DNA of 64,000 bases, from assembly GCA_041738615.1 (NCBI GenBank), contig JBGSPL010000004.1:129203-193202 (forward strand), in the 5' to 3' direction. Both the position numbers and the translations under genes were made by a program. Every line of letters starts with the position of its first letter. Position 1 is the stretch's first letter. The DNA comes from Patescibacteria group bacterium. Lineage in GTDB: Bacteria; Patescibacteriota; CPR2; UBA1875; CAIMLA01. A model generated the notes under the pieces. It had not been told where the DNA came from. It saw nothing but the letters and a program-made list of their open reading frames with translations, and made no database searches. Positions 1,239 to 62,776 of the stretch are shown piece after piece.

Positions 1239-1239
1239 T

Positions 1240-1635
1240 GGTGGAGCTGGTGGGTACCGCCCCCACGTCCGAAAGCGAATTCGAAATAATTTGTAACAAT
1301 CATACTCGTGACTGGTAGTTTTGGTGCTGATGGTCAAGTCTCGAGAAAATCCATCGGCCTTATCCTCTAGAGTTTCAGGCTAGCTTAGAGAAGTCACTAG
1401 CCCTACCCCTGACATATATGGCACTCAGTAGCGAACGATTCAGGTCTCACTCACAAGAGCGGTTACTGCGTATTAGGCAGCAACTGGTGCAAAGCTGTTT
1501 ACGCTGAAAGCGCTAGCAACCTTACTAACAAAGTTTTTTGCAACTATGTTTGATCTGCTGAATAACGCGGACAGACCACCGCGGATTGCATCATTTCGAT
1601 TTCAAGATACCTTCGTCGAAGCTAGTTCAGCCCCC
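1240..1635 (-). ncRNA. ssrA: tmRNA (SsrA), one-piece, about 396 nt
   Basis: On the minus strand the 5' end GGGGCTGAACTAGCTTCGACGAAGG and the 3' end GGACGTGGGGGCGGTACCCACCAGCTCCACCA match the E. coli tmRNA tRNA-like domain (GGGGCUGAUUCUGGAUUCGACGGG ... GGACGCGGGUUCAACUCCCGCCAGCUCCACCA), including an encoded CCA. The internal tag reading frame ends ...AFSVNSFAPVAA-stop (forward coordinates about 1474-1541), with a GCA resume codon. Confidence 0.88.
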
Positions 1636-44623: not shown

Positions 44624-47600
44624 TTGGCACAAAGGCCACGATTCCTGAAAGCTAGAAGCTATTGCAAGAAAGCAGTAAGTGCATGTTCTGCTATATTTGG
44701 ATTGGCTATAGTTCGGGCTCTTACCTTCTTCATCGACAAGGCTCGGGTGTGGCGCTTTGAACTGACGTACAAGCTTCACCTCAAGGTTCGCTCAGTACAT
44801 GACAACTTGGTAGTGAAGAACGTTATTTATCGTAAGGTTACGGAAAATAAGTATGCAGTGCCGGTGCGAAATGCTACAGCTTCTGCCTTTGTTGTATCTC
44901 TAATGCTGTTTACTACTATTCAATATATATTGCCACAGTTCAATCTATTAGCTCCAGGTCAAGTTTATGCCGGGTCAAATAATAAGACGTGGACAACCAA
45001 AGCAGACTTCGAAACCGCAGCAACAAATGCGGGAGTGACAATCGGGGGTGATAATGACGCGAATGATGCAAATAACAACGATAATACTAAGCTTCAGGCT
45101 ACTTCAAACTGGTCCCAACCGTCTAACCCAACGGCTGGCACGGACACCACGTATTCTACTGCCGTGGATGGCGAATTTGTTTATATAGGTGGATTACAAT
45201 ATGTGGGCCAAGCTCCAGATTTAATTAATGGTGATTATCAGTGGAGAATTGAAAAGAGAAATATATCAGACGGTACTTTGGTGTGGGCCCAGACAGAGAA
45301 TAACGGTGGTTACTATGACTATGTAAAGGATATATTCGTTTCAGGGAGTTCGCTCTACTTAGTGGGTATCGGTTCAGGGGCAAGTAATAATGATACAAAA
45401 TGGGTAATAGAAAAAAGGAATATCTCAGATGGTGGATTAGCTTGGACACGGACTTACAATCCTTCAACTGGAAACGATGTCCCAATGTCAGGGGCTACTG
45501 ATGGATCCTGGATATATGTGGGGGGTCTCGATAACTCTATGTCTAATAACCCCGCTTGGCGGCTAGAAAAAATCTCCTCAGTGGATGGTTCTTTATCAAC
45601 AGCTGTTACGGTTGATATCAGTACTGGCGTGACTTCGTACGAGTCCATCACTGGTGTTGCTGTGTCCGGTGGGTACGTTTATATAGGTGGATACGGTGGT
45701 TCTGCGAGTAATTCCTTTGGGAGAATACAGAAAAGAAATTCGAGTAACCTGGCTTTGACAATTGGTACATGGACTGTTGACTCGGACCCAACCACCGGTA
45801 ATGATGGCATACAGGATTTAATTATTGACGGTAGTTTTTTATACGTTGGCGGTTATTCAGGTGCCAATTATAGATACGAAAAACGTAACATGACTACCGG
45901 GGCCCTTGTTTACGGCCAGAATATCACACCAACAGGAACGAATCCTAATGTTAATATGATGACCTCGGACGGAACATATTTTTATACTTCCGCAAGTTCA
46001 ATAGGGACATTCCCTACCTATTACTACATTATTGAGAAGAGGCTTCTCTCGGACGCCTCTCTTGTCTGGACGATTACTGGTAAGCCATGTCGCGGAATAA
46101 CTTTTTCCAACTCAAGCCTTTTTACGGCTGTTACCAACACTGGTGGAGGAGGTGATTGGCTTACGGAGAGAATGTCAGATGCCAATGGCTCGGTAACAGC
46201 CTTTAATACCCCTGGTAACCTAGGTTCGAGTGTTACATCCGCGGTTGGTCTCCGTTATGATTCAGGAATTGGTAATACCGCTAAGGCGTCTACGATTTCG
46301 TTGACAGGCACAACGGCCTCGAACAACCAGAAGGTAAAGCTCAAGGTTCGTTCTGGTGATACTCAAGGAGAACTAGACACCTCTTTCTGCTATGGTCCAA
46401 CCTCCACAGGTTCTGGCTGTAGCGATTGGAGTACGGCGGGATCATTCTTTTATCAACAGCGAGTAGCGGGCGTAGAGACCTCTTCGACGACCGGTATATT
46501 AAATACAATCCCAGCCAAAAGATTTATAGAAGTTCTAGTTCGTCTAGAATCAGACGGATCGAATACACCTGTCTTAGACAGAGTTGATCTGGGGTATAAC
46601 TATCTCGACGCCCCAATTGCCCAGTTAGCGAAGAGACTTAGCGGCACAACCGACATACCTTATGACACTTACACTAATGAATCAGGATTTGTTGAAAAAT
46701 ATTTCGCCCAAGGCTTTAACAGCGGGGAAACACTTTATCCAGAAATTGAAGTAGTGTCTCAAGGTGCGTCATTTACTGGCACTGGCACAGTTGGCCCAGG
46801 AGTTTTGTTAACCCCAGGAAATTATGCTAATCCTGTGGAACTTGCTGTTACTAAGAACGGATTAGCTCCAGGCAATTATAAATTTAAGGTTCGGACCTCC
46901 GACTCCACGGGGCGCATAAGTGCATGGTCTACAAACGAAGTACTTTTCCGTATCGAACAAGAACTGCCTACCGGTTCAGTTACCATTGGCGGGTCAAATG
47001 TCACGGGCGGATATGCGAAGTCGAGAAATGTAGTTCTTAGCTCGACGGTTAACGACACAGGGGGCTCAGGTCTGGGACAGATGCAATTTGCAAATAAACC
47101 CGCAATTGATGGGGACCCCCTAGTTTGGTCAGGGTGGGAACCGTATAGTACTAGCAGGGTTTGGGCACTTTCAGCTGGAAATGGGGCAAAAACTGTCTAC
47201 GCCCAATATCGGGATAATGCAGGAAATGTAACTAATACCTGGGCACAGACTAGCCAGGCTGATTTTCAAGGCGGACAAACCTCAGGGAACGCCAGTGTTA
47301 CTAATACCCCCGGAACTATCAAGCTAGTAGGAGGAGTGCAGACCACTATAATAAGGCCAAACGGTCCTGGAAACTATAGCCAATGGTCGCAGAATCCGGC
47401 AACGGGGCAAAACTGGGACAAGGTTGATGAGGTTGTAAATAACCAGGGGGATTATGTACTTGGAGGCGGTAAGGACCTCTATAATTTGCAGGATCCCGCC
47501 CTAAGCAACGTAACAATTACAGGAGTTAACATCTACGCAGACGCTTTCGGCTCGGATGATTGCGGAGGTTGTTCGTCGTTGATTTCTTTCGGTATCTATG

Positions 47601-50600
47601 ACGGTTCGGGTGAGTGGTTCTCTACAGGAGTGGAGAACTCGGGGAGTCCGCTCGGCAATTTTGGCTCGTTAACGAATCCTCGTACCGGACTGGCTTGGAC
47701 TCTATCCCAAATCAATAGTTTACAGATTGGTTTGCTTAGCAGCGGGTCCTCAGCAATTCTTTATCAGATATATGCCGAAGTCTCATATATTCCTTCGTCT
47801 CTCTCTGGAAATTTCGCATCATTCGTAAAAGACAACGCTAGTGCTCAACATTTTGAAAATATCTCCTGGTCGGCGGATGTTCCAACACAGGCAGGTGCCG
47901 ATGCCTTACGTTTCCAGGTAGCAGCCAACAATGATAACACCACCTGGAACTATGTAGGACCTGATGGGACGAGTGGGACATACTTCACAACCAGCGGTAC
48001 CCAGATACCTACAAGTCTGAATGGTAATCAATATATCAGGTATAAGGCTTATCTCCAGTCGGCAGATTCCGCCTATACCCCCGTTATTTATGACGTATCT
48101 ATAGGAGTAACTACTGGTATTTCGGCTGCTGTCACGCTAGACGCTACCGCTCCAACAGGCACCGCTACTATCAATGCCGGTAATCCGACCTATGCAACAA
48201 ATCGCGCTGTAACGATGATTCTCGATGCCTCGGACGTGGGTACTGGTCTCAAGGACTTCCAGCTCTCGAACGACGGCGTCACCTGGGGCGCAGCTACCGA
48301 CGCGAATGGGGCAATCACAAATAGTGGTTGGCAGACTTGGGACGAGGCATACAAAACTACTGGTTACAGCGGAAGCTGGTCGTTGCTAGCGGGATTGGAT
48401 GGTCCTCGCAAGGTCTACGCGAGATTTAGGGATCTAGCGCTTAACATCGGAGGAGACTACTATCCAAACTGGATAGACGGCACAGGTACTATAAATAACA
48501 TCCAGGTTTACAATGCAAATGAAGCGACTAAAAAACAGTGGGGACCAGTTTCGGCTTGTCCAGGCCCGCAGTGTACGACAGTCACAGACGCTTACTGGGG
48601 TGATGGTAATGGTCTCTCAGCTGATAATAGTCTAGATTATTCTGCTTACCCGGCACGAGCTGCATGTCAGATTGTTGGCGGAAGACTGCCAACATTTGGT
48701 GAACTTGAGGGGATGTATGCCAATCAATCTAGTTACGGGCAAGCCTTTAATCAGGATGATTTTTTCTGGACCTCTATGGAATATGACTTAAATTCTTCGA
48801 ATGCGAGAGGATTTAAATTTTCCAACGAAGCGTCCTCGGCCACACCGAAAAACTACTCTTACTATGTTCGTTGTGTACGAGATTTAACACCTGCCGTTAT
48901 AGCTATTTCGGACAATGTCACTCTCGATATGACACTACCTACTACGGCTCTCATCGCCGATCCCGTAACAAACGATGGCTCAAATGGCTGGTACAAGACA
49001 AATCCGACTATCACTCTGACGGCAACAAAGAACGGCTCGGGCGTAGGTATAGAGAACGTGTTGTATCGTTGGGATAACAGTGACCTAGGATCTGGGACCA
49101 CTACTTATTCGACGCCGTTTGATATGGCCGGTTCCATCGGCCAGGGGACACACACCTTGTACTATAGGTCCAAGGACTTCGCTGGACACGTGGAAGGCAC
49201 GCAACAGCAACTCTTCAAGCTCGACACTACTTTACCTACAACGGGATACTCTATAGGAACCCCAAATGGTGCAAATGGTTGGTTCGTTGATACTGCACCA
49301 CAAATCACGCTTTCGCCTTCTGATGCCGGCGGCGGTAGTGCCTCTGGTATCGCAAGCACCAAGTACCAATGGGACAGCACAAGTGGCAATTGGACCACGG
49401 GTACAAGTGTCACGGCGATAACCGGCGACCATGTGCTCTACTACTATTCCACTGATACCGCCGGAAACGATGAGGTACAGATCGAACATCAACAGATTAA
49501 GTTTGATAATGGTAAGCCCCTAACCCCAACAGATTTTCGTGCACCGCTCAACGAATCGTCTACAAACATCATAGTTCTGCATTGGGATGCGGCGTTAGAT
49601 GGCGGTGGCTCAGGAGCCGTAGATTATCAGATACGTCGAAAGAAAGATTCAATCCTTTCCTGGAATGATGCGAGCGTTTGGACTTCTGGGCAGCTAGGTA
49701 ACGTACAGGTGTACTCCGACAACGCAGGTCTTGATGCTGGTTTCAAGTACAATTATCAGATTCGGGCCACGGACCTTGCAGGTAACTTAGCAGACTGGCC
49801 GGGTGACGGGGTAAAGACGGATGGTTATACTATAGACAACGTTCCACCTTCGACACCTAGTGCTGTGGTGGCAACAGTCTGTGATGGTACGGTGCAGAAA
49901 TGTAGCGATGTTAACAATCGTGGCTCTGAGATCAGACTCACCTGGACGATATCTAACGATACTGGACTCGGTATGGGCCCCGACGCTGAGGGCAAGATAG
50001 GCCACTACAAAATCTGGCGTTCTGTGACCGGGAGCGGTGTTGAAAACGAGTGGGTTTTGGTCGGTGTGGTTGACGGAAGCAGTGGTCAGCAAACAATTTG
50101 GTATGACAACAATGACAATAATGCCGCTACCTACAACATTGGAGTTTATCCTGTAACGGATCAAAGAAGTGGACAGCCGGCTGGTAAGACCTCTATTTCA
50201 ACGGGCCTAAACGACTACACGCAGTACTACTATAGAATTACAGCACTTGATCTTATTAACAATGAGAGTGATCTCTTTCCACCGTTCTTTCCAGACCCAG
50301 ATATCAACAAAAACGGCAATACCGCTATCACTCCAGATATTACTCCGCCGACAAACCCAAGCGCAGTTACAGCGACCGCCCTGGGTCTTGATGGTAGTGA
50401 TCTAAATAATCCAAACATTGGCCATCAACGAATTTCTGTAAACTGGGCAGCATCGGTAGATTGCAAGGCCTTGGTTACTAACTGTACCCAAGCGACGCCA
50501 AACATAGATCGGGGTAGTGGCAATGTGTCCTATAAAGTATATCGTTCCACAACGAATTATCTCGACGAAGCAGATTGGCTCACTAGTGGTACCCTAGTAA

Positions 50601-53380
50601 CGACGACAGCCGCAGAAACCTATGAAGACAATGGCCTCGCCGACACGACGACCTACTATTACCGCGTTATAGCCATGGATGCCAGTACGAATACTTCTGG
50701 ATTTTCAAGCGTCGATCCAAACTCGAGTGCTAGAACCTATAATTCCGATGTTCCATCGGCTCCGATTGAGGTTCAGGTATCCTCCCTAAAGGGAGATACT
50801 ACGGCAGACGCTTCGGTCGGGCATAAAATCACGGTGAACTTCAAGGGAAGCAATAGTAAGGGTGACCAGATTGTTCGATATGAAGTTTATCGTTACAAAA
50901 ATGATACAAACAACCTCACGGCTGCAGAGTGGCTAGATCCAACAAAGACTACTAAGTTGAAGCTGAGCAGTGCTGGAGGCTGCGGCTCTGGTTGTCTGGC
51001 ATTTACGGCTGGTAGTACGGGAAGTGATATTTCCATCACGCCAAATCAGGCCGACAGAGATAATCAGTACCAGATAGTAGATACGGGCCTCGTTGACGGT
51101 GCTACTTACTTCTATCGAGTTCGAGCTCAGGATAATGCGAATGTACCAAATCAACCAGACCAGAGTAACCGCTTTGGGCCACTTTCTAGCATCACCTCAC
51201 TGAATTCCGGTGGCGCAAATAAGTTCGGTTGGGACATCACTCCAGATGCAACAGCGCCTACCTGGAGCCTTACACCGACTGTCCAGTCCGGTCCGGCAAA
51301 ATTGAGAATCAAGGACATCAATGGAGACGGAGTATTCTACCTGCGTAATATTGTTACTTGGGAACGTATCCCGACCTCTTATCGTGGTATCGCGAACGAT
51401 TTCCGAGAATATAAGATATATCGCTCTATGGATGGCGTCGTCTGGGATCAGATAAAGGTCTCGGGGAATAATCCTCTCTATGATGCAGATCAAAACAAGG
51501 CGATGGCAAACAATTTTTATATCGATTACATCTCGGAGGTCGAGGCTCTTGCAACAAAAAATGCAGGCAGAACCTATCGATATGCTGTGACCGCCCTAGA
51601 TGACGCTGCCGAGAATTTCCGATACGCCGACAACACTCCGGTAAACGGTGTAAACGGCACATTCTATTCGAATGAGACAAAAATCGATAAGTTGGCGAGT
51701 TCGGTTGACCTAAACCCAATCGTGGCAACACCTCACATCGAGACGGTTGTTGCTCAGAAGTTACCTCGTTTTGCAGATGTTGGAGTTTCCGAGGCTACGA
51801 TTACTTGGTATACCGATCAGCGGACCGATTCTGTGGTAGAATACCGCAAGGCCACCCCCGACGCAGCAATCTCCGGCGATGATAAGTGGGTGACTGTAGG
51901 GGATAGAGCACAGAAGGATCCAACGGAGATGCACTCGGTCAAGCTGATAGCGCTCAAGCCGACAACGCAATACTATTACCGCATTATTTCCAGAAACTTC
52001 TTGGGGAACGAGGCGATGTTGGCCTCCGACCCAGGTAATGATAATTACTCCACGGTACTTCCAGGACTTACCACTTCTGGCTTTACTATTACACCGGGAA
52101 ATACAGTCTCTACGACATCAACCACCGAAGTCACATGGAGCACTAATCTGGACGCTTCCTCCGCTTTTGTTGAGTATCAGTTGCAGAGACATGGTGGTGA
52201 TGAACCACAGGGCGGAACTGCTGGTGTAGACCCAGAAGCCTTATCTGCAAGTCCTAGAAACCACCGGGTGATCATCAAGGGCCTCAGGTCTGATCGCACA
52301 TATACTTATAAGGTTAAGTCCATCAGTAAAGATGGCTACCTTGCGGAGTACCCTGCCGGTGAATTTGCAAACTTCAAGACCAAAGCCTTCGACTCGGCCC
52401 AGTTTACTCTAGCTCCAGCCAGCTCGAATGTTGCTGAGCGTAACATTACGGCCACTACGGCTCAGATCGTTTGGCAGACCGGCAACGAAACTACGTCGTG
52501 GGTAGACTATAGTACAACCTCTGGCGTTTATGACGTCTCTGCAGGCAACAACAACATGGCCACGACCCATGTAGTCGTTATCGAGGGCCTGATACCTGGC
52601 ACCAAGTACTATTATCGAGTACGTGTGAAAGACGCCAACGAAGTAGAGTATACTTCGCAGGAATACAGCTTCACCGCTGTCCTGAAGCCGAAGATTAGCA
52701 ATATGACGGTAAAGAACATCACTCCATACTCGGTAACTATCGCTTGGGAAACTAATGTTGACACGGAAACCATTGTTAACTGGGGTACTAGCACTGCCTA
52801 TGGCGAAAAGAGGGGCAAGAACGGTGTCTCTAAGGTTCATGAGCTTGTGATAGATAATCTGATCGACAACCAAGAGTATCACTACCAAATCCTTGCCAAG
52901 GATGAGGCTGGGAACGAAGTTGCCGATACCGACAAGCTAGTCCGTACCCCACTCGATACCGAAGGGCCCAAGATTACTAATGCCAAGACCGACATCCTCC
53001 CTATGGGTGAGAATGACACAACCGCATCAGTAATCATCTCCTGGAATACCAATAAACCAGCTAGTACGCTCGTCGAGTACGACGAAGGTATCATCGGCGG
53101 TAACTATGCTAACAGATCTGTAGAGGACACCTCACTAAATACCTCACATACTGTTATCGTAAAGAACCTAAAGCCAGCATCCTCATTCCATTACCGTATG
53201 GTCTCTGCAGATAAACGCAACAACATTACGCAGTCGCAGGACTACACCTTCGTAACTCCTACCAAGGAAAAATCGATCCTTCAGCTCATCCTGAAGTCAC
53301 TCGAGGACACCTTTGCCTGGACCAAGAATCTGAACCAATTCTTCGGAAACGTCGGCAAGAGAATCACCGGTCAGAAGTAA
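44624..53380 (+). CDS. Giant surface protein paralog 1 (2918 aa)
   Basis: TTG start after a GAGGGAGGG SD, then a basic cytoplasmic N-terminus and a TM helix (ASAFVVSLMLFTTIQYILP). Seven blade repeats (WRIEKRNISDGTLVW...YVYIGG) follow. It also has repeated Ig-like modules ending ...KTVYAQYRDNAGN, a DUF1566-like lectin domain (...FFWTSMEY...YYVRCVRD), many FN3 domains (YYYRV.A.D.AGN.S) and a C-terminal tail identical to paralog 2. Confidence 0.75.
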   Translation: MAQRPRFLKARSYCKKAVSACSAIFGLAIVRALTFFIDKARVWRFELTYKLHLKVRSVHDNLVVKNVIYRKVTENKYAVPVRNATASAFVVSLMLFTTIQYILPQFNLLAPGQVYAGSNNKTWTTKADFETAATNAGVTIGGDNDANDANNNDNTKLQATSNWSQPSNPTAGTDTTYSTAVDGEFVYIGGLQYVGQAPDLINGDYQWRIEKRNISDGTLVWAQTENNGGYYDYVKDIFVSGSSLYLVGIGSGASNNDTKWVIEKRNISDGGLAWTRTYNPSTGNDVPMSGATDGSWIYVGGLDNSMSNNPAWRLEKISSVDGSLSTAVTVDISTGVTSYESITGVAVSGGYVYIGGYGGSASNSFGRIQKRNSSNLALTIGTWTVDSDPTTGNDGIQDLIIDGSFLYVGGYSGANYRYEKRNMTTGALVYGQNITPTGTNPNVNMMTSDGTYFYTSASSIGTFPTYYYIIEKRLLSDASLVWTITGKPCRGITFSNSSLFTAVTNTGGGGDWLTERMSDANGSVTAFNTPGNLGSSVTSAVGLRYDSGIGNTAKASTISLTGTTASNNQKVKLKVRSGDTQGELDTSFCYGPTSTGSGCSDWSTAGSFFYQQRVAGVETSSTTGILNTIPAKRFIEVLVRLESDGSNTPVLDRVDLGYNYLDAPIAQLAKRLSGTTDIPYDTYTNESGFVEKYFAQGFNSGETLYPEIEVVSQGASFTGTGTVGPGVLLTPGNYANPVELAVTKNGLAPGNYKFKVRTSDSTGRISAWSTNEVLFRIEQELPTGSVTIGGSNVTGGYAKSRNVVLSSTVNDTGGSGLGQMQFANKPAIDGDPLVWSGWEPYSTSRVWALSAGNGAKTVYAQYRDNAGNVTNTWAQTSQADFQGGQTSGNASVTNTPGTIKLVGGVQTTIIRPNGPGNYSQWSQNPATGQNWDKVDEVVNNQGDYVLGGGKDLYNLQDPALSNVTITGVNIYADAFGSDDCGGCSSLISFGIYDGSGEWFSTGVENSGSPLGNFGSLTNPRTGLAWTLSQINSLQIGLLSSGSSAILYQIYAEVSYIPSSLSGNFASFVKDNASAQHFENISWSADVPTQAGADALRFQVAANNDNTTWNYVGPDGTSGTYFTTSGTQIPTSLNGNQYIRYKAYLQSADSAYTPVIYDVSIGVTTGISAAVTLDATAPTGTATINAGNPTYATNRAVTMILDASDVGTGLKDFQLSNDGVTWGAATDANGAITNSGWQTWDEAYKTTGYSGSWSLLAGLDGPRKVYARFRDLALNIGGDYYPNWIDGTGTINNIQVYNANEATKKQWGPVSACPGPQCTTVTDAYWGDGNGLSADNSLDYSAYPARAACQIVGGRLPTFGELEGMYANQSSYGQAFNQDDFFWTSMEYDLNSSNARGFKFSNEASSATPKNYSYYVRCVRDLTPAVIAISDNVTLDMTLPTTALIADPVTNDGSNGWYKTNPTITLTATKNGSGVGIENVLYRWDNSDLGSGTTTYSTPFDMAGSIGQGTHTLYYRSKDFAGHVEGTQQQLFKLDTTLPTTGYSIGTPNGANGWFVDTAPQITLSPSDAGGGSASGIASTKYQWDSTSGNWTTGTSVTAITGDHVLYYYSTDTAGNDEVQIEHQQIKFDNGKPLTPTDFRAPLNESSTNIIVLHWDAALDGGGSGAVDYQIRRKKDSILSWNDASVWTSGQLGNVQVYSDNAGLDAGFKYNYQIRATDLAGNLADWPGDGVKTDGYTIDNVPPSTPSAVVATVCDGTVQKCSDVNNRGSEIRLTWTISNDTGLGMGPDAEGKIGHYKIWRSVTGSGVENEWVLVGVVDGSSGQQTIWYDNNDNNAATYNIGVYPVTDQRSGQPAGKTSISTGLNDYTQYYYRITALDLINNESDLFPPFFPDPDINKNGNTAITPDITPPTNPSAVTATALGLDGSDLNNPNIGHQRISVNWAASVDCKALVTNCTQATPNIDRGSGNVSYKVYRSTTNYLDEADWLTSGTLVTTTAAETYEDNGLADTTTYYYRVIAMDASTNTSGFSSVDPNSSARTYNSDVPSAPIEVQVSSLKGDTTADASVGHKITVNFKGSNSKGDQIVRYEVYRYKNDTNNLTAAEWLDPTKTTKLKLSSAGGCGSGCLAFTAGSTGSDISITPNQADRDNQYQIVDTGLVDGATYFYRVRAQDNANVPNQPDQSNRFGPLSSITSLNSGGANKFGWDITPDATAPTWSLTPTVQSGPAKLRIKDINGDGVFYLRNIVTWERIPTSYRGIANDFREYKIYRSMDGVVWDQIKVSGNNPLYDADQNKAMANNFYIDYISEVEALATKNAGRTYRYAVTALDDAAENFRYADNTPVNGVNGTFYSNETKIDKLASSVDLNPIVATPHIETVVAQKLPRFADVGVSEATITWYTDQRTDSVVEYRKATPDAAISGDDKWVTVGDRAQKDPTEMHSVKLIALKPTTQYYYRIISRNFLGNEAMLASDPGNDNYSTVLPGLTTSGFTITPGNTVSTTSTTEVTWSTNLDASSAFVEYQLQRHGGDEPQGGTAGVDPEALSASPRNHRVIIKGLRSDRTYTYKVKSISKDGYLAEYPAGEFANFKTKAFDSAQFTLAPASSNVAERNITATTAQIVWQTGNETTSWVDYSTTSGVYDVSAGNNNMATTHVVVIEGLIPGTKYYYRVRVKDANEVEYTSQEYSFTAVLKPKISNMTVKNITPYSVTIAWETNVDTETIVNWGTSTAYGEKRGKNGVSKVHELVIDNLIDNQEYHYQILAKDEAGNEVADTDKLVRTPLDTEGPKITNAKTDILPMGENDTTASVIISWNTNKPASTLVEYDEGIIGGNYANRSVEDTSLNTSHTVIVKNLKPASSFHYRMVSADKRNNITQSQDYTFVTPTKEKSILQLILKSLEDTFAWTKNLNQFFGNVGKRITGQK

Positions 53381-53482: not shown

Positions 53483-56400
53483 TTGGCACAAAGGCCACGA
53501 TTCCTGAAAGCTAGAAACTACTTACGAAAGGCAGTAGGTGTCTGTTCTTCTTTTTTTGGTGTGGCTGCAATTAAAGCTCTCACGTTCATTATCGATAAAT
53601 CTAGAATCTGGAGATATGAACTGACCTATAGGCTCCATTTGAGAGTTCGCAAGTTTCACGACGTTTTGGTTGTGAAGAGCCCAGTATACAAAAAAACCAC
53701 TGAAAGTAAGTATGCCGTACCGGTAAAAAATGCCACTATTTCAGCATTTTTCGTGTCCTTGATGCTATTTACAACTATTCAATTTATTTTACCTTACTTA
53801 AATCCTTTCAAGTCAGGGTTGGTACAGGCTGGGGCAAATAGCGTTACTTGGTCTACTAACGGTGATTTTACATACAATAAGTCGGCGTTATGTGGGGCCA
53901 CTACACAGTCCCAGATAGCGATTTCGGGGACTGCTTACACTGATGCATCCTGTACGGCGGCTGCTGCAGATGCGAGTTTGGAGCTTAATTCTTCATCCAC
54001 ACCGCAGGGAGCTCTCGCTGTTAGTGGAGGTGCTGATTTTGCACTTGCCTTGATGGCGGATGGGACCGTTAGGTCTTGGGGGAAAAATAACGTTGGGCAG
54101 CTCGGGAACGGAACAAATACAGAATCAAATGTACCGGTAACCGTATCCGGTATTACTGGCACCACCGCAGGTACCAGGGCTATAGCAGTTTCGGCTGGCT
54201 CGGATTGGGTTGGTGGAGGTCATGCCCTCGCCTTGATGGCTGACGGAACGATCAAATCTTGGGGCAGGAATGGGTATGGGGAACTAGGAAATGGGGCAAC
54301 GGGTGGCTCATCTAATATTCCTGTAACCGTTATCGGTATTACGGGTGCCAACGCGGTCACCCGAGCAATTGCGATTTCAGCAGGTATAAATTATTCAACC
54401 GCAGTAATGGCGGATGGAACGATTAAGTCATGGGGTTTTAACAGTACTGCTGGTACTTTGGGGAACAATAGTACAACAGATTCAAATGCTCCGGTGAGTG
54501 TATCTAATATAAATGGAACTACAGCGGCAACAAGGGCGACTGCAATATCAGCTGGAAACGGACATACTGCCGCCTTGATGGCGGATGGGACGATTAAAAC
54601 TTGGGGCGCGGGCACGATTGGTCAGTTGGGGAATAATGGAACGTCGAATTCCCTAGTGCCGGTGAATGTATCTAACATTAATGGTTCAACTGCGGCGCTC
54701 AGGGCAATGGCAGTCGCAACTGGTAATACTCAGACACTGGCCCTGATGGCGGACGGAACAGTGAAGTCTTGGGGTTACAACATGGCTGGCGAGCTCGGCA
54801 ATGGGAGTGCATCTGGAACTCAGGCCAATGTGCCAGTAAATGTATCAGTAATTACGGGTGCTTCCGCAGCCCTGCGGGCCACTGCAATCTCAGCAGGTGC
54901 TAGGGTCTCCATGGCTCTAATGGCGGATGGCACGGTTAAGACCTGGGGTTATAATGGTACCTTGGGCAATAACACGAATGATGCCTCTACCATACCAGTT
55001 ACAGTCACAGGCATTGATGGTTTGACGGCTGTTAATCGAGCCACGTACGTGTCTGAAGGGATGAACAACGGCGCTTCATATGTATTAATGGCTGATGGCA
55101 AAATCAAATCATGGGGAACGGGTACAAATGGCAGACTTGGAAATGGTTCATCCTCCACGCAGCTTGTTCCAGTAACTGTCTCTGGTATAGCTGGGGCAGT
55201 GGCTTCGAGTAGGGCAATTTCAGTATCGACAGGCACGTTTAATGGCGCTGCGGTGATGGCAGATGGATCTGCCAGAGTATGGGGTGGCAATACATGGGGT
55301 CAACTTGGCAATAATAGTCAAGGAGGGGCATCTAACATCCCTGTGGTGGTCTCAAATCTGGATGGTAGCTCAGCTGATAAGCGAGCAGTATCCATTTCTC
55401 TAGGTCATTATAACGCTTATGCACTAATGGCAGATGGCACAGTAAAGGCGTGGGGACAACCAGGGTTTCTTGGCAATGGAAGTGTTTATAGCGGTAGTGT
55501 TGTTCAGACAGTTCCTACTAATGTCTCGGGTATTGATGGTACGACACCTGCCAAAAGAGCTGTTTCTGTTTCGTCTTCTTCAAGCACTGTTATTGCCCTG
55601 ATGGCAGATGGGACAGTTAAGACCTGGGGCTCAAATAATTATGGTCAGCTAGGCAACGGAAATACTGGGACGGATGCTCTTGCTCCGGTAGATGTTCAGG
55701 GGATAAATGGAAGCAGCGCCGCAACTAGAGCGGTAGGTATCTCTTCGGGAAGCAGTAACATGTACGCATTGATGTCAGATGGAACAATTAAATCATGGGG
55801 CTACAACCTAAATGGAGAGCTTGGAAACGGAAACACAGGAACGGACTCTAATCTACCAGTAAGTGTTTCAATTATAGATGGGCTGAGTGCTGCTAATAGA
55901 GCCGTCTCAATGGGTAGAGGTACTGGTGAAGTAAGAAATGCCCTAATGGCGGATGGCACAGTAAGTAGTTGGGGTAAAAGTGCTTATTCTGGAGGTTTTG
56001 GTGATGGTACTTATGGGGTAAGTAATACCCCAGTGAAGGCTACCGGAATAGACGGAGCGACTCCCGCTAACAGGGCTACTGCTGTTATAAGTGGAGGGTA
56101 TTTTGGTGCTGGTATCATGGCTGATGGTTCAGTCAAATTCTGGGGATATAATCAGGAAGTGCCATTTTCAGCATCTACTCCGGTGTTGGTTCCTGGTTTT
56201 AGCGGTACTTCATCATTTAACCAGTCGACGGTTATAAGTAGTATCGGTAATACTTTTATCGCGCTGGAAGCAAATGGCTCGATCAAATCATGGGGTGATA
56301 ATACTAATGGCCGACTAGGGAATGGTAATACTGGTACAGACTCTAGCGTACCCGTATCTGTTTTAAATATTGCGGGAGGTATGGTTGTAGCTCTGTATAC

Positions 56401-59400
56401 CTCGCCCGGGACCATCTCTGGACTAAAAGTAGATGCTGGAGTTGGCCAGAAGTATAAATGGAATTCCGTAAACTGGAACACGGCTGCGCTACCCGCCAAT
56501 ACTTCGGTGACCTTTAAATATCGAACCTCTGAGGATGGTTCAACTTGGTCTGATACCACCTGGGCCGGCGCGGGTACAACTCAATCATCAGGAAGTACGG
56601 GCACGGCTGATTTAAGCGTTTTGAACGCCACTAGATATCTCGAAATTCAGCTTACTCTTACTACTTCAGATGGAGTCTCATCCCCAACACTCAATGATTT
56701 TACTGTTACCTACGACTCCCTCGAAGCCCCAGCAAACGGCAACATCACAATGTACAAAGCGGATGGTACCACTCAGCTGAAAAATTCTAGTGGTACTGCT
56801 GTAGCCGCTGGTGTGGGAGCTGGCTGGACCAACGAACAATCACTGGTGATTAAGGCCACAGGGCTGACTTGTGGATCCACTGGAGGAACTAACCGATGTG
56901 GTGGAGTGTCTAACGGTCGCAAACCAGAGGCAGAGATAAAGCCAGTCGGTACACCATTTGCCACTAATCCTGTATCTGGTACAGATACTATAGTAGGTAC
57001 TAGTGACAACTCAGGAGTAGACCAAGAGCTAGAATCTGGCTATGTCACCATTCCAGCCTCGAAACTAACCACCATTGGTTCACCAGGATACCACTTCCGC
57101 GTCAGAACAACAGATGAGGCTGGTCGTGTTTCTGGCTGGACAAACTACGCGAGTGACGGTCTGGCCTTTACCATAGAGCAAACTACCCCGACTGGAACTA
57201 TCTCTATAGGTGGAGCAAATGTCACAGGAAACTATGCCAAGTCTACTAGCGTTACTTTAGATACTAGCTCGGCTGCAGATACCGGCGGCTCTGGCCTGGC
57301 CGAGATGCAGTTTTCCAATAATGGTATCACCTGGTCTGGCTGGGAGGCGTACAGCCCCACCAAGGCTTGGACTCTTTCTTCTGGAGATGGTCCCAAAACG
57401 GTTTATGCCCAATGCCGCGATTGGGCTGGGAATATTTCTGGCGACACTTGGAGTACAAAAGCAGAATTTAGCTCGGGATCACTCGGCCCTAATCTAACTG
57501 TTTCTGGTGCCTCGCCGGCAGATTATTCAACCGTAAGCTTAAAATATGAGCTAGACAATACAGTGAGTATGATTTCGGGTGCATTCAACAACACAACTGC
57601 TCTGAGGAGTGATGGCACAGCGCTTGCAGTCGGTAATAACGCTTATGGGCAGTTAACGTCAATCGCTACATGGAACAACCTTAAGTCAGTTTCAGCCGGT
57701 GAAAATACCCACATTCTAGGGCTTAAAAATGACGGGACTGTATATGGCGCCGGTAATAACTCCTTAGGACAAGTCAACGTTGGCTCATGGTCAAATATTC
57801 GTTCAGTAGGCACGGGTTACGCAAGCTCTTTTGGGATAACCAACAACGGCACGGTGATTGCTATCGGCTATGATGCTTATGGGCAGCTAAATGTCTCAGG
57901 CTGGTCCGATATAAAGCAGGTCTCAGGCTATAATCATACCTTAGGGCTTAAAAATGACGGTACGGTACTTTGCATCGGTGATAATGGTAACGGCCAATGT
58001 AATAATGTAGGGTCCTGGTCAGATACCAAGAAGGTTCTTGCAGGTGCAAGTCATTCAGTGGGACTTAAAAATGATGGCACTCTTGTCGGCGTTGGAGATA
58101 ATAACAATGGTCAACTTAATTTTGGAACTTGGACAGGTGTTAAGGACATCGCGGTGACTGGGAGGGGAACGTTGGGTCTTAAAGAAGACGGGACAGTTCT
58201 AGCAGTTGGCGACAACACCTATGGTCCGCTCGATGTCGGCACCTGGTCAAACATAACTTCTATTGAATGTGGTTACTATCATTGTGTGGGATTAAGAGGA
58301 GATGGTACCTTGGTGGCCACTGGCAGGGATTATGGCCAGTTGGCCGTGGGCTCCTTCACTGATGTTAAACAGCCACCGTTGATCTTTAATTCCCCAGGAG
58401 TTTTATCGGGGTTGGTTTATGATAGTGGCCCCGGAAAAACCCAAAAATGGATGGCGTCTCGGTGGCAGACATCATCACTACCGGCCAATAGCCGGGTTAA
58501 ATTAAGGGCCAGAACTTCCGATAATGGTTCAAGTTGGAGCGGTTATAGCTCGTACATTACTCAATCTAGCGCTGGTACAACTTCAGGCGGTGGGGCCTTT
58601 TCTGGACTGGCAGATTCTAGGTACTTATCAATTGAGTTAACCTTGGAATCGGATGACGGTTTGGGCTCCCCAATACTATCGGACCTAGTGTTAGAGTCTG
58701 CCTTATTTAGTAGTGTCACCCTAGACACCACCCCGCCAGCCAATGTCACTGGCCTCGCTGGGTATGTTTCCGATGGCGGTGCTGCTCTTAGTCAGGCAAG
58801 CTGGTATGACAACAAAACCCCTTACTTTGATTGGGACGACAGCGCAGATGGTGATCTAAATCATTATGAATATTGTTTAGGGGCTAGCAACTGTACACCA
58901 AATTTAACTAGAAATACTATTAGCAATGTTGCTTTGGATCTAAACAACGCCACAAACTACCCAGATGGTACCTACTATATGAGAGTAGTGGCCCATGACA
59001 ATGCGGGGCAACCATCTACCACTCCAGATTCTTGGACGTATAATTTTGACCGTACAACACCGGTGGCCGTAACGGGGTACTCGGCTACTCAGATACATGA
59101 TGCTTATATCGGCATAGATTGGACTCCAGTCTCTGTGCAGAACGGCTCCCCAGTCACTTACACTATTGAGAGAATCAGGAATACAAAATTCCAAGAGGGC
59201 TTTACCGTAAATGACTTCGCGGGACACATCTGGTCGCAGCAAACTGCCCATGGTTACGCGGAATTTACAGGGGTAACGGGCAACTCATATCAAGACAATA
59301 TAGCGCTAAAGGATAGGGGTATCAAATATGCGTATCGCATAAAGGCGGTAGATGAAACTGCTAAGGAAAGCCCTTACCAAAACGATGCATTCTTTGGTCT

Positions 59401-62400
59401 TACCAGAGATGGTATAACCCCCACCTCCCCATCAAACGTTGTGGTGGCACCTTGTAGCTATCAGTCACAGGCGGCCTGTTCGGACTTTGGTAGTCCTACG
59501 CCAGACGACTCCCTAAAAGGTCATGAGGTAAAGGTATCCTGGACCAGGGCTACCGATGATGGCACCGGTGTCCAGAAGTACTATGTAATCCGTGTTGACA
59601 ATATATTTGATGGCTCCTATGTAGCGGAAGATATAGCAGCGACCCTGGTAGTGGATCCAGAAAATCCTGTCCAGGCGATGGTTGTGTATGTCGCTACAGG
59701 TATCAGTGATTATACAATCTATCATTTTAGGGTAGTTGCAGAGGACGGATCTACACCGCCAAACAAGTCACCCTACTTGCCATCTAGTGACGAGAACTAC
59801 AATTTTGCCAGAACTCCAGATGTCACTCCACCATCGGCGCCTGTTGTATCTGCTACCCCGGGTGGCATGGATGATCCAATGGCAAACGAGCCAAAGCAGA
59901 AGATCATTATCTCCTGGTCCCAGTCTGTTGATGCCGGCTCAGGAGTAAATACCTATGTTCTATATAGGGCTGACAGGCCGGGAGAACTAACTGACCAGAG
60001 CGGTTCACTGACCGATAATGAATTTATAGATATTACCAGTTCACCAAACGTCACCTGCAATTTAACGCTCCGAGAATGTACCGAGGTTGGGTTAGAAGAT
60101 GTGTCTCACTATTACTACAGGGTGAGGGCTAAAGACAACGTTGCAGACCCATATACAAATATTTCACCTTTCTCAAACAATGCCTACACAAAGACACTCT
60201 CTAGCGCGGTCCCTTCACCACCAAGAGGCCGGAAGATACCCGACTCTAGTCCACTTGCTTATGAACCATTTCCTTACGTCTATTCGATAAAGGGAGACCC
60301 CACTACTGTTGGTAGTAGGGTAGGCAAGGACATTCAGATACAATTTACCGGTAGTAGACTCAAGGACGACCAGCCATATCTAGTCCTCTATGAAGTGTAC
60401 CGCTCTACGGATAATCTCGCCTGGTCCAAAGTAGGCGGAGATATCAACCCGATTCGAAATGAAAACGACACAGACAATACTTATACAGTCACAGATACTG
60501 GCGTCGCAGATGCCACCAAGTACTACTATAGAGTGAAGGCTATCGGCAACAACCCCAATGTTACAGGCGGTGGTGAATCATACTCCGGAGTTGGTAGTAA
60601 TGTGAATCAAGGCTGGGATATCACGCCCGATGTTACTGCTCCTGCGCTACCTACGGGGCTGAAGGTTAAAGATATCCATGACGACGGGACTAACTACAAA
60701 CGAAATATCATCACTTGGGAGCGTATCGCCGAACCGAAGAGAAACGGTGACAATGACTTCCGAGAATACCGTATATATAGATCCAATGATGGGCTAGTCT
60801 GGGGACAGATTTGTAAAGCTGCTGTCGATTCTGTAAATACAGTTTATTTGCCAGGCGGGTGTGACGATACACGCCCTAATCCGCTGTATGACATCAACAA
60901 GGAGATCGGTCTCGCTACAAACTATTATATGGACCTGATACCAATAGGTGATGCGGATCAAGACTATTATTACTACGTGGCAGCTGTAGATGATGCAAAA
61001 GACGCCTATAGATATGTCAACAATAATGTTATCAATGGTTACTCCAATGAGTCAGCACCAAATCGTACACCCGATAATAAAATAGTTGCGGTGAATATAA
61101 ACCCAGCTATCGCTCAGCCAACTATTACTAGAACAGGAGACAATGCCCCTAAGGTAGTCAATGTAGGTGTCTCTACTGCCACTGTCGAGTGGTATGCAGA
61201 CCAGCTGACGGACTCCGTAGTAGAGTTTCGGGCACAAGGTACTAGTAAGTGGGTTACTATCGGTGATCGGGTACCAAAATATTACAACGAGAAACACACC
61301 GTATCTTTATTTGGATTACTGCCGACCACTACATATGAATACAAACTTATCTCGAGAAATAGTCTAGGGAACGAGGATGTAGTCGGGGATGCCGACAATG
61401 AAAAGCAATATTTACCTATCCTCACCACTTCTGGATTTAGTATCTCTAACATAGATTATACCTCCACCACCACTTCGGCTACTGTCACCTGGAACACAAA
61501 TATCTGGGCAAATGGTAACTATGTAGAATATCAAATGCAAGGAGTCACAAACGGCAGTGGCAGCGGCAATGGACCAGCAGGCCAAAATATGTCGCCAGTT
61601 CTTGACAGCAATCAGGTGCTTAGACAAAATCTAACCCCTGCAGAGATCCAGGAATATCTCCTCGGGCACAAGGTATACATCGGTGGACTCAAATCCAGCC
61701 AGACCTATAGCTTTAAGCTAAAGAGTATCTCTGTTGATGGTTATGTGACCTATTCTGACCTGGGCACCTTCACCACAAGATCCTTTGATACTGCCCAATT
61801 CTCACTAGCCCCAACTAGCTCCAATGTAGCTGATCGTAATATCACCTCTACTACTGCACAAATAGTCTGGCAGACAGCTGTACCTACGACTTCTTGGATA
61901 GAGTACGGTACGACTTCCGGCAGCTATGGAACCTCGGCAGGTGATAATACCCTCACCATGGTTCACGTCGTAACTCTAGAGGGTCTAACTCCTGGCACCA
62001 AATACTATTACAGAGCTCGCGTAAAGGATCTAAATGACGTAGAGTACACTTCACCTGAGTACTCCTTCACTGCCATCTTGAAACCCAAAATATCTAATAT
62101 GACGGTGAAGAATATTACCCCATACTCAGTGACTATTGCTTGGGAGACTAATGTTGACACAGAAACCATAGTGAACTGGGGAACTACGACCGCCTATGGT
62201 GAGAAACGTGGTAAAAACGGAGTCTCCAAAGTGCACGAGCTAGTAATAGATAATCTGCTCGACAACCAAGAGTATCACTATCAAATCCTTGCCAAGGATG
62301 AGGCTGGGAACGAAGTTGCAGACACTGACAAACTAGTCCGTACCCCACTCGATACCGAAGGGCCCAAGATTACTAATGCCAAGACCGACATTCTCCCTAT

Positions 62401-62776
62401 GGGTGAGAATGATACAACCGCATCAGTAATCATCTCCTGGAATACTAACAAGCCTGCCTCTACTCTGGTAGAGTACGACGAAGGTATCATCGGCGGTAAC
62501 TATGCTAACAGATCTGTAGAGGACACCTCACTAAATACCTCACATACCGTTATCGTAAAGAACCTAAAGCCAGCCTCCTCATTCCACTACCGTATGGTCT
62601 CTGCAGATAAACGTAACAACATTACGCAGTCGCAGGACTACACCTTCGTAACTCCTACCAAGGAAAAATCGATCCTCCAGCTAATCCTCAAATCGCTGGA
62701 GGACACCTTTGCCTGGACGAAGAATCTAAACCAATTCTTCGGAAACGTCGGCAAGAGAATCACTGGCCAGAAGTAA
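53483..62776 (+). CDS. Giant surface protein paralog 2 (3097 aa)
   Basis: Its N-terminus and 5'UTR match paralog 1. More than 20 RCC1-type repeats (ALMADGTVKSWG.N..GQLGNG) span aa 180-960. A second array of about 10 shorter RCC1-like repeats spans aa 1370-1620. Ig-like modules end ...KTVYAQCRDWAGN. There are many FN3 domains. The C-terminal 330 aa are almost identical to paralog 1. Confidence 0.75.
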   Translation: MAQRPRFLKARNYLRKAVGVCSSFFGVAAIKALTFIIDKSRIWRYELTYRLHLRVRKFHDVLVVKSPVYKKTTESKYAVPVKNATISAFFVSLMLFTTIQFILPYLNPFKSGLVQAGANSVTWSTNGDFTYNKSALCGATTQSQIAISGTAYTDASCTAAAADASLELNSSSTPQGALAVSGGADFALALMADGTVRSWGKNNVGQLGNGTNTESNVPVTVSGITGTTAGTRAIAVSAGSDWVGGGHALALMADGTIKSWGRNGYGELGNGATGGSSNIPVTVIGITGANAVTRAIAISAGINYSTAVMADGTIKSWGFNSTAGTLGNNSTTDSNAPVSVSNINGTTAATRATAISAGNGHTAALMADGTIKTWGAGTIGQLGNNGTSNSLVPVNVSNINGSTAALRAMAVATGNTQTLALMADGTVKSWGYNMAGELGNGSASGTQANVPVNVSVITGASAALRATAISAGARVSMALMADGTVKTWGYNGTLGNNTNDASTIPVTVTGIDGLTAVNRATYVSEGMNNGASYVLMADGKIKSWGTGTNGRLGNGSSSTQLVPVTVSGIAGAVASSRAISVSTGTFNGAAVMADGSARVWGGNTWGQLGNNSQGGASNIPVVVSNLDGSSADKRAVSISLGHYNAYALMADGTVKAWGQPGFLGNGSVYSGSVVQTVPTNVSGIDGTTPAKRAVSVSSSSSTVIALMADGTVKTWGSNNYGQLGNGNTGTDALAPVDVQGINGSSAATRAVGISSGSSNMYALMSDGTIKSWGYNLNGELGNGNTGTDSNLPVSVSIIDGLSAANRAVSMGRGTGEVRNALMADGTVSSWGKSAYSGGFGDGTYGVSNTPVKATGIDGATPANRATAVISGGYFGAGIMADGSVKFWGYNQEVPFSASTPVLVPGFSGTSSFNQSTVISSIGNTFIALEANGSIKSWGDNTNGRLGNGNTGTDSSVPVSVLNIAGGMVVALYTSPGTISGLKVDAGVGQKYKWNSVNWNTAALPANTSVTFKYRTSEDGSTWSDTTWAGAGTTQSSGSTGTADLSVLNATRYLEIQLTLTTSDGVSSPTLNDFTVTYDSLEAPANGNITMYKADGTTQLKNSSGTAVAAGVGAGWTNEQSLVIKATGLTCGSTGGTNRCGGVSNGRKPEAEIKPVGTPFATNPVSGTDTIVGTSDNSGVDQELESGYVTIPASKLTTIGSPGYHFRVRTTDEAGRVSGWTNYASDGLAFTIEQTTPTGTISIGGANVTGNYAKSTSVTLDTSSAADTGGSGLAEMQFSNNGITWSGWEAYSPTKAWTLSSGDGPKTVYAQCRDWAGNISGDTWSTKAEFSSGSLGPNLTVSGASPADYSTVSLKYELDNTVSMISGAFNNTTALRSDGTALAVGNNAYGQLTSIATWNNLKSVSAGENTHILGLKNDGTVYGAGNNSLGQVNVGSWSNIRSVGTGYASSFGITNNGTVIAIGYDAYGQLNVSGWSDIKQVSGYNHTLGLKNDGTVLCIGDNGNGQCNNVGSWSDTKKVLAGASHSVGLKNDGTLVGVGDNNNGQLNFGTWTGVKDIAVTGRGTLGLKEDGTVLAVGDNTYGPLDVGTWSNITSIECGYYHCVGLRGDGTLVATGRDYGQLAVGSFTDVKQPPLIFNSPGVLSGLVYDSGPGKTQKWMASRWQTSSLPANSRVKLRARTSDNGSSWSGYSSYITQSSAGTTSGGGAFSGLADSRYLSIELTLESDDGLGSPILSDLVLESALFSSVTLDTTPPANVTGLAGYVSDGGAALSQASWYDNKTPYFDWDDSADGDLNHYEYCLGASNCTPNLTRNTISNVALDLNNATNYPDGTYYMRVVAHDNAGQPSTTPDSWTYNFDRTTPVAVTGYSATQIHDAYIGIDWTPVSVQNGSPVTYTIERIRNTKFQEGFTVNDFAGHIWSQQTAHGYAEFTGVTGNSYQDNIALKDRGIKYAYRIKAVDETAKESPYQNDAFFGLTRDGITPTSPSNVVVAPCSYQSQAACSDFGSPTPDDSLKGHEVKVSWTRATDDGTGVQKYYVIRVDNIFDGSYVAEDIAATLVVDPENPVQAMVVYVATGISDYTIYHFRVVAEDGSTPPNKSPYLPSSDENYNFARTPDVTPPSAPVVSATPGGMDDPMANEPKQKIIISWSQSVDAGSGVNTYVLYRADRPGELTDQSGSLTDNEFIDITSSPNVTCNLTLRECTEVGLEDVSHYYYRVRAKDNVADPYTNISPFSNNAYTKTLSSAVPSPPRGRKIPDSSPLAYEPFPYVYSIKGDPTTVGSRVGKDIQIQFTGSRLKDDQPYLVLYEVYRSTDNLAWSKVGGDINPIRNENDTDNTYTVTDTGVADATKYYYRVKAIGNNPNVTGGGESYSGVGSNVNQGWDITPDVTAPALPTGLKVKDIHDDGTNYKRNIITWERIAEPKRNGDNDFREYRIYRSNDGLVWGQICKAAVDSVNTVYLPGGCDDTRPNPLYDINKEIGLATNYYMDLIPIGDADQDYYYYVAAVDDAKDAYRYVNNNVINGYSNESAPNRTPDNKIVAVNINPAIAQPTITRTGDNAPKVVNVGVSTATVEWYADQLTDSVVEFRAQGTSKWVTIGDRVPKYYNEKHTVSLFGLLPTTTYEYKLISRNSLGNEDVVGDADNEKQYLPILTTSGFSISNIDYTSTTTSATVTWNTNIWANGNYVEYQMQGVTNGSGSGNGPAGQNMSPVLDSNQVLRQNLTPAEIQEYLLGHKVYIGGLKSSQTYSFKLKSISVDGYVTYSDLGTFTTRSFDTAQFSLAPTSSNVADRNITSTTAQIVWQTAVPTTSWIEYGTTSGSYGTSAGDNTLTMVHVVTLEGLTPGTKYYYRARVKDLNDVEYTSPEYSFTAILKPKISNMTVKNITPYSVTIAWETNVDTETIVNWGTTTAYGEKRGKNGVSKVHELVIDNLLDNQEYHYQILAKDEAGNEVADTDKLVRTPLDTEGPKITNAKTDILPMGENDTTASVIISWNTNKPASTLVEYDEGIIGGNYANRSVEDTSLNTSHTVIVKNLKPASSFHYRMVSADKRNNITQSQDYTFVTPTKEKSILQLILKSLEDTFAWTKNLNQFFGNVGKRITGQK

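Follow-up and report, generated by a model that had tools for sequence, protein, structure and literature searches.

A giant Patescibacteria protein with two predicted RCC1-like propellers and one predicted BLIP-II-type propeller

Paralog 2 is a giant gene of a Patescibacteria group bacterium (GTDB lineage CPR2), located in a 64,000-nucleotide stretch of contig JBGSPL010000004.1 (assembly GCA_041738615.1, positions 129,203 to 193,202), hereafter the window. Its product of 3,097 residues carries long arrays of RCC1-type repeats, and the locus raises the question of what these repeats fold into, how exceptional they are among bacterial proteins, and what they might do for the cell.

Repeat arrays, predicted folds and abundance

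When scanned with the Pfam hidden Markov models (HMMs) PF00415, PF13540 and PF25390, the whole protein matched RCC1 (E = 1.8e-70), RCC1_2 (2.5e-100) and WD40_RLD, the RCC1-like domain (8.5e-122). The corresponding scores were 233.8, 326.5 and 407.4 bits, against gathering cut-offs of 21.7, 22 and 150. The RCC1 share of the whole protein amounts to ~35% and is divided between two arrays, A and B.

Array A contains 14 L-M-A-D-G-T motifs, at residues 190, 251, 308, 365, 421, 479, 535, 591, 648, 706, 763, 821, 878 and 928, with an average spacing of 56.8 residues, and HMMs made from its own blades detected exactly 14 blades of this type. Its first half, A1 (nucleotides 53960-55159), matched WD40_RLD at 1.6e-59, RCC1 at 8.6e-49 and RCC1_2 at 3.6e-41 in Pfam, and its second half, A2 (55160-56380), matched the same families at 6.8e-43, 1.6e-28 and 5.3e-32, respectively. 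Taken alone, segment A1 reached 202.5 bits for WD40_RLD and passed the cut-off of 150, whereas segment A2 remained slightly below it at 147.8 bits.

An AlphaFold2 prediction of residues 160-986, obtained with a 51-homologue alignment, had a mean predicted local distance difference test score (pLDDT) of 89.1 and contained 56 strands, corresponding to 14 four-stranded blades. The confidence dipped at model residues ~410-420, at the junction of blades 7 and 8, which represents the linker between propellers. In this model, array A is two seven-bladed, four-stranded propellers. Each half fitted complete seven-bladed RCC1-like domains (RLDs) in a Foldseek comparison with the PDB, with UVR8 first (template modelling (TM) score 0.90-0.93, root-mean-square deviation (rmsd) ~2 Å, 29% identity), followed by the RLDs of HERC2 and HERC1, RCC1 and RPGR. 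At the sequence level, phmmer matched the HERC2 RLD (6.3e-40), UVR8 (2.5e-36, end to end with A1) and human RCC1 (5.6e-21).

Array B is built differently, from seven repeats of ~38 residues spaced 37-40 residues apart (residues 1369-1640, with the motifs at 1377-1607), which Pfam RCC1_2 matched in seven stretches at 2.8e-47. The AlphaFold2 prediction of residues 1347-1651 (55 homologues) had a pLDDT of 92.0, a predicted TM score of 0.87 and 21 strands; as modelled, array B is one seven-bladed propeller of three-stranded blades. The best Foldseek match was BLIP-II (1JTD_B; E = 1.3e-21, TM score 0.79, rmsd 2.8 Å, 28-31% identity), which ranked ahead of the eukaryotic RLDs. The protein unites both known branches of the RCC1/BLIP-II lineage and, according to the predictions, has 21 blades in three propellers.

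A preliminary description of this stretch had assigned the repeats to the RCC1/RCC1_2 family, and this assignment holds. Pfam HMMs, sequence matches to solved RLDs and the predicted fold agree, and the Pfam scans of the whole protein and its sub-segments gave an RCC1 signal far above chance. The repeat counts needed revision. Residues 180-960 had been described as more than 20 repeats of 50 residues, while the L-M-A-D-G-T motifs and HMMs give 14 of ~57 residues, and the three or so propellers expected in this array become two, of 14 blades and 56 strands, in the predicted structure. The second array does exist as described, but with the ~38-residue period given above instead of 32 residues.

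The blades have diverged considerably, with a mean pairwise identity of 47.6% in array A and 41.8% in array B. Blade 13 shares only 24-38% identity with the rest. Tandem Repeats Finder detected no DNA-level tandem repeat or periodicity in the open reading frame (ORF). Given the divergence of the blades, the array is therefore neither an artefact of assembly or collapsed repeats nor the product of recent amplification, and the DNA gives no access to the history of the repeats. We also considered a recent duplication of a whole seven-blade unit and rejected it, since blades i and i+7 (46.1% identity) gave no signal over neighbouring blades (48.9%). With these identities and no signal from i to i+7, the arrays have existed long enough for their blades to diverge. 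Propellers A1 and A2 (54008-56398) contain no cysteine, and in the blades of array A an inserted G-[IT]-x-G-x-x-A-x-x-R-A stretch is modelled as a short helical turn.

Both A2 and propeller B are followed by a copy of a module of ~105 residues. The two copies are 42% identical (copy 2 spans residues 1634-1737), and copy 1, for which Pfam gave no match, is 25% identical to residues 524-664 of the product of paralog 1, the adjacent giant gene, where a third copy follows the head. This recurrence suggests a "propeller plus module" unit.

Both the domain type and the size of the array are common in bacteria. At E <= 1e-3, the matches listed for a double-propeller query of 807 residues included more than 4,400 proteins. 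Most of the top matches listed covered 95-99% of the query at 32-44% identity, and several of them also contained fn3 and Pur_ac_phosph_N domains. Annotated matches were often called "alpha-tubulin suppressor-like RCC1 family protein", and the few with a named source came from Chloroflexi, Planctomycetota, Chlamydiae, Firmicutes, Proteobacteria and Peregrinibacteria. A propeller B query matched 43,648 clusters at 50% identity, 4,949 of them at <= 1e-30. Blade counts made with HMMs from the blades of paralog 2, which are minimum values, reached at least 21 in 53 of the 390 homologues retrieved and at least 33 in the largest, with a median of 14 for the double-propeller matches. The view that an array of this size fused to fibronectin type III (FN3) domains is unusual is thus not borne out, as there are thousands of double-propeller bacterial proteins, some of them with FN3 domains. 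Highly repetitive RCC1/BLIP-II propellers have indeed been described as "mostly of bacterial origin" (Pereira and Lupas, PMC9218822), and giant extracellular all-RCC1 proteins that are far larger are known from Oscillospiraceae (West-Roberts et al., bioRxiv 10.1101/2023.11.21.568195). The best identities were 38-48% to bacterial or metagenomic proteins versus 24-30% to eukaryotic RLDs; in this comparison the bacterial relatives are nearer, and nothing points to a eukaryotic origin.

Leader, stalk, tail and related giants

The first 110 residues of the protein form a basic leader, with 20 lysines and arginines versus 4 aspartates and glutamates. The whole protein has only two hydrophobic windows, at residues 17-38 and 84-106. 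Of these, only the second is conserved among the relatives at loci L001 to L006, together with a V-x-A site followed by G or S and an ELTY[KR]LHL..R..HD motif. Residues 1-129 are 66% identical to the leader of paralog 1. No Pfam or NCBIfam family matched the leader, and the tail is likewise uncovered by curated families; NCBIfam gave nothing above cut-off on the leader, the tail, the middle region or the head of paralog 1. We infer from these features that the leader consists of a long N-terminal extension followed by a Sec signal or signal anchor. A type IV pilin was considered and rejected, as the G-F/M-x-x-x-E motif is absent and ~80 residues precede the hydrophobic segment KNATISAFFVSLMLFTTIQFILP.

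A search of a 5.8-billion-protein index with the 135-residue leader returned one 80-residue fragment, although the index seemingly favours shorter proteins, so that the absence of giants from it is uninformative. The indexed search never returned the query's own protein, and its matches reached at most 1,405 residues for the double-propeller query and at most 507 residues for another query. An exhaustive representative search did recover the 3,097-residue protein (P0124).

Glycine, alanine, serine and threonine together make up 40.5% of the whole protein and 48-53% of propellers A1 and A2, compared with 23-30% of neighbouring cytoplasmic proteins. The same criterion has been applied to the pilins of TM7x versus intracellular PilB proteins (PMC11623550). 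The extracellular location put forward in the preliminary description is plausible in view of the conserved hydrophobic segment, the V-x-A site and this composition.

The spacers between module copy 1 and propeller B (56723..57472) gave a weak match to NCBIfam barrel_OmpL47 (3.2e-4, below cut-off) and a weak match to Pfam Ig_Rha78A_N, and they are conserved in paralog 1 and the relatives. From about residue 1750 onwards, Pfam detected fn3 (4e-16), Pur_ac_phosph_N (1.6e-32, in five stretches), FN3_DSCAM and PhoD_N, which confirms the FN3 fusion described earlier. Domains of the FN3 and Ig-like types are characteristic of surface proteins. Residues 1829-3097 of this stalk are 46% identical to paralog 1 and 36-48% identical to the giants at L001 to L007. 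The protein closes with a tail that all relatives, from Saccharibacteria to CPR2, have in conserved form. This tail contains neither an LPXTG motif nor a transmembrane helix, there is no hydrophobic window beyond residue 106, and the C-terminus reads ...KEKSILQLILKSLEDTFAWTKNLNQFFGNVGKRITGQK. Membership among LPXTG/sortase-anchored adhesins, such as those of the MSCRAMM (microbial surface components recognizing adhesive matrix molecules) type, was rejected for want of the LPXTG signal, although the logic of head, stalk and anchor may still apply.

The TTG start of paralog 2 is closely preceded by a GAGGGAGGGA Shine-Dalgarno sequence, with a terminator-like hairpin farther upstream. Because an equivalent Shine-Dalgarno sequence and the conserved hairpin recur upstream of paralog 1, this start is well supported. 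Public NCBI-derived collections hold an identical 3,097-residue protein, likewise starting at TTG.

Paralog 1 encodes 2,918 residues, adjoins paralog 2 and fills ~18 kb together with it. The two genes are alike only at their ends. The leader and the ~86 nucleotides upstream of it, including the Shine-Dalgarno sequence and the hairpin, show 72% DNA identity, and the last 1,067 nucleotides, including ~50 past the stop codon, show 83%, while the heads are unrelated. Such similarity confined to the ends suggests gene conversion or a cassette-like exchange of heads. No RCC1 was detected by Pfam in paralog 1. Its head (45140-46200, residues ~175-520) contains a repeat of ~52 residues, YVGG...W.IEKRNISDG.L.W, without a Pfam match, which may represent another propeller type, and a weak Lcl_C match lies at residues 1352-1419.

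Proteins related through the C-terminal 400 residues occur at 66-74% identity in metagenome-assembled genomes (MAGs) of Candidatus Saccharibacteria, with several copies per genome, and at 48-49% identity in one Patescibacteria group MAG and one CPR2 MAG. They are 2,500-3,200 residues long and have the leader, the stalk and the tail in common, but not the heads. We describe them as an unnamed giant family of Saccharibacteria and the candidate phyla radiation (CPR), defined by the ELTY[KR]LHL leader with its hydrophobic segment, the FN3 stalk and the KEKSILQLILKSLEE/DTFAWT tail. All three elements are present in paralog 2, in paralog 1 and in the giants of L001 to L006; L007 and L008 have the tail. 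The heads contain Gly_rich_2 at L001 and Lcl_C at L004, and no assigned domain at L002, L003 and L005. RCC1 was found in just one other giant, at L006, as a single propeller in the same frame. Even at L002, where PheT, a YkuD-type protein (86% identity) and two giants follow one another as in the window, the giants lack RCC1. By this gene order and the identities of the C-terminal module, the window would belong to a Saccharibacteria genome. Since the heads differ on a conserved frame, the RCC1 propellers are one of several interchangeable heads.

The giants lie among housekeeping genes, with the transfer-messenger RNA (tmRNA) gene followed by BipA, CTP synthase, RmuC, PheS, PheT and a YkuD-type L,D-transpeptidase (Table 1). 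The tmRNA gene was detected over its full length by Rfam RF00023 (96.6 bits) and missed by ARAGORN. A 757-residue ORF in the window had no Pfam match at E <= 1e-3. Immediately upstream of the giants is the L,D-transpeptidase gene, which also encodes a PG_binding_4 domain. A YkuD gene also adjoins giants at two further Saccharibacteria MAG loci (L002, 648-2453; L003, 2-652), and no YkuD was found within 10 kb at four other loci. Lysine is the last residue in 7 of the 11 family members inspected (...ITGQK, ...TGKK, ...FIGK), and the more distant relatives have S, Q or G in its place. In Escherichia coli, the lysine end of Lpp is joined to peptidoglycan by L,D-transpeptidases.

Table 1 Features of the paralog 2 locus, in coordinates of the window.
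Feature	Position	Strand	Remarks
Paralog 2, giant gene, complete	53483..62776	+	Single ORF, 3,097 residues, TTG start
Leader: ~80 basic residues (ELTY[KR]LHL..R..HD), hydrophobic residues 84-106, V-x-A site before G; putative Sec signal or anchor	53483..53812	+	
RCC1-like propeller A1 (predicted)	54008..55216	+	Blades 1-7, ~57 residues each, four-stranded
RCC1-like propeller A2 (predicted)	55217..56398	+	Blades 8-14, blade 13 degenerate
~105-residue module, copy 1	56399..56722	+	After propeller A2; beta-rich domain suggested by composition
Ig-like or OmpL47-type beta-barrel-like spacer domains	56723..57472	+	Weak NCBIfam/Pfam matches
BLIP-II-type propeller B (predicted)	57578..58402	+	7 blades of ~38 residues, three-stranded
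~105-residue module, copy 2	58403..58732	+	After propeller B; self-BLAST
Stalk: FN3 and FN3-like domains, roughly a dozen	58733..62647	+	Common to paralog 1 and relatives
Conserved C-terminal tail, KEKSILQLILKSLE[DE]TFAWT.NL.QFFG..G.R...K	62648..62773	+	Amphipathic, without LPXTG
Paralog 1, giant gene	44624..53380	+	
YkuD-type L,D-transpeptidase with PG_binding_4	42720..44531	+	
757-residue ORF	9331..11604	-	
tmRNA gene	1239..1634	-	

Candidate functions of the propellers

With a probability of about 0.6, we consider paralog 2 to encode a surface protein that is exported and uses its propellers as ligand-binding heads directed toward a bacterial host or another surface. The variable heads, the conserved leader, stalk and tail, and the single conserved hydrophobic segment with its V-x-A site all speak for this reading. 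The protein would be exported by Sec via the hydrophobic segment at residues 84-106, would probably be cleaved after V-Q-A at about residue 116, and would be kept on the envelope by its conserved stalk and tail. Displayed as interchangeable heads, the propellers would bind a protein or glycan on the bacterial host or other surface with their top faces, in a design that parallels head-stalk-anchor adhesins.

Both propeller types have relatives that bind other molecules or cells. BLIP-II, a secreted protein, inhibits class A beta-lactamases, and the titles of PDB entries 3QI0 and 3QHY report protein binding at picomolar affinity. In Nanosynbacter lyticus TM7x, 10.6% of host cells were bound, but only 4.6% once PilX2, a minor pilin with an RCC1 propeller, had been deleted (PMC11623550). 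By analogy, PilX2 would be the best functional precedent for paralog 2. The adhesion to a host proposed in the preliminary description is a reasonable inference from such parallels, and such a host, for a Saccharibacteria cell, would itself be a bacterium. Saccharibacteria have genomes of ~1 Mb, and attachment to a host bacterium is essential for them. Long-term attachment has been attributed to "more complex surface structures" than pili (PMC11623550).

Several points weigh against a surface-binding role. Signal-peptide cleavage and the mode of anchoring are putative, the leader is unusually long, with ~80 residues before the hydrophobic segment, and the C-terminus carries no recognised wall-sorting signal. 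If the hydrophobic segment were an uncleaved anchor, the propellers would lie at the membrane with the tail distal, reversing the order of head and stalk; the putative V-x-A cleavage and the conserved tail favour distal N-terminal heads. Finally, RCC1-like propellers are generic scaffolds, for which binding is likely, while the target, be it a host cell, a polysaccharide, an enzyme or the protein itself, is unreadable from the sequence.

This last point leaves room for a structural or otherwise generic surface part, which could serve as a coat, a spacer, a means of self-aggregation or biofilm formation, a device to capture nutrients or polysaccharides, or a phage decoy. We regard such a role as unlikely on balance, yet as a serious contender. 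Free-living bacteria from many phyla have matching domain combinations, a coat could be formed by two neighbouring 9-kb paralogues with a long FN3 stalk, and consecutive genes for giant surface proteins are also described in bacteria that are not epibiotic (PMC12863079). However, variable heads on a conserved stalk, seen both among the paralogues and among close relatives, fit a diversifying recognition function better, and the RCC1 propeller of TM7x contributes to host binding.

A more specific proposal would make the giants a CPR-specific host-recognition family. It combines the long ELTYKLHL leader, a cassette-like exchange of N-terminal heads (RCC1, other propellers, lectin-like Lcl_C, Gly_rich_2) between paralogues kept alike at both gene ends by gene conversion, and a covalent, Lpp-like attachment of the usually Lys-terminated tail to peptidoglycan by the adjacent YkuD enzyme. 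As a whole this scheme is speculative and rather doubtful. If a dedicated leader, head swapping and YkuD anchoring were all true, head exchange would set the host range of Saccharibacteria.

The resemblance of propeller B to BLIP-II, its nearest neighbour in fold at 28-31% identity, raises the idea of a tight inhibitor of host envelope enzymes, whether of the beta-lactamase or penicillin-binding type or wall hydrolases. We find this improbable, as the likeness concerns the scaffold, RCC1_2 propellers occur by the tens of thousands in unrelated contexts, and a tether of 3,000 residues is not an obvious feature of a diffusible inhibitor.

Array A matches RCC1, HERC2 and UVR8 of eukaryotes significantly in both sequence and fold, which would fit a eukaryote-derived effector acting on Ran or another small GTPase, in the manner of Legionella LegG1/PieG/PpgA. 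Nevertheless, such an effector is very improbable here. The closest relatives are bacterial (38-48% versus 24-30% identity), human RCC1 is a weaker match than HERC2 (5.6e-21 versus 6e-40), and the protein is built as an exported giant with FN3 domains. Cultivated Patescibacteria are all episymbionts of other microbes (PMC11623550). RCC1 proper is marked by a Ran-binding face with a beta-wedge and catalytic residues; the model of array A has uniform four-stranded blades and no extra hairpin. To our knowledge, bacteria have no Ran. A polymorphic toxin or an Rhs/Tc-type delivery protein with RCC1 propellers in its delivery shell is scarcely credible, for although RCC1-like propellers do occur in some insecticidal toxin complexes and polymorphic toxins (bioRxiv 10.1101/2023.11.21.568195; PMC3482391), Pfam found neither Rhs/YD repeats nor a C-terminal toxin domain, no immunity-like gene was noted, and the C-terminus is a conserved FN3 stalk and tail with the variable part N-terminal, whereas polymorphic toxins vary C-terminally.

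As a domain finding, paralog 2 adds little, and its value lies in the epibiont context. Two giants with conserved ends and different heads are reasonable candidates for host recognition in cultivated relatives, and the corrected domain map, with two RCC1 propellers, one BLIP-II-type propeller and the recurring ~105-residue module, leads to defined constructs for binding assays.

Comparison with known systems

The bacterial alpha-tubulin suppressor-like RCC1 proteins (COG5184-type) share with paralog 2 the tandem double seven-bladed propeller and the GQLG and DGTV motifs. They are frequently fused to Ig, PKD, Big_2 or FN3 domains, and many have at least 21 blades. In contrast to them, the blades of paralog 2 are ~5 residues longer through the G-[IT]-x-G-x-x-A-x-x-R-A insertion, propellers A1 and A2 lack the two cysteines per blade of the COG5184-type consensus (H.CAL / CWG), and the array is framed by a leader, a stalk and a tail specific to the CPR.

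Propeller B is alike to BLIP-II of Streptomyces exfoliatus (1JTD, 3QI0), which also has seven three-stranded blades of 38-40 residues. BLIP-II is a secreted, stand-alone protein of ~270 residues, whereas propeller B is one domain among 3,097 residues of a protein that is probably exported, and the likeness does not imply binding of a beta-lactamase. The eukaryotic RLDs of UVR8, HERC1/HERC2, RCC1 and RPGR have the seven-bladed, four-stranded fold in common with array A, with homology down to 6e-40. They differ in sequence (24-30% identity), are intracellular, and act as a guanine nucleotide exchange factor for Ran, in UV-B sensing or as ubiquitin-ligase scaffolds, roles that have no CPR counterpart.

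Two further systems place RCC1 propellers outside the cell. The giant RCC1-only proteins of Oscillospiraceae are likewise predicted to be extracellular and consist of many tandem RCC1 propellers (bioRxiv 10.1101/2023.11.21.568195). They are RCC1 over their full length, much larger and without transmembrane anchor regions, whereas paralog 2 mixes its propellers with other modules. PilX2 of N. lyticus TM7x comes from the same phylum and presents a seven-bladed RCC1 propeller outside the cell, where it is needed for efficient host binding (PMC11623550). It is a pilin-type "lollipop" that places one propeller on a type IV pilus, while paralog 2 is a non-pilin protein with three predicted propellers and an FN3 stalk; the two are likened here by domain type.

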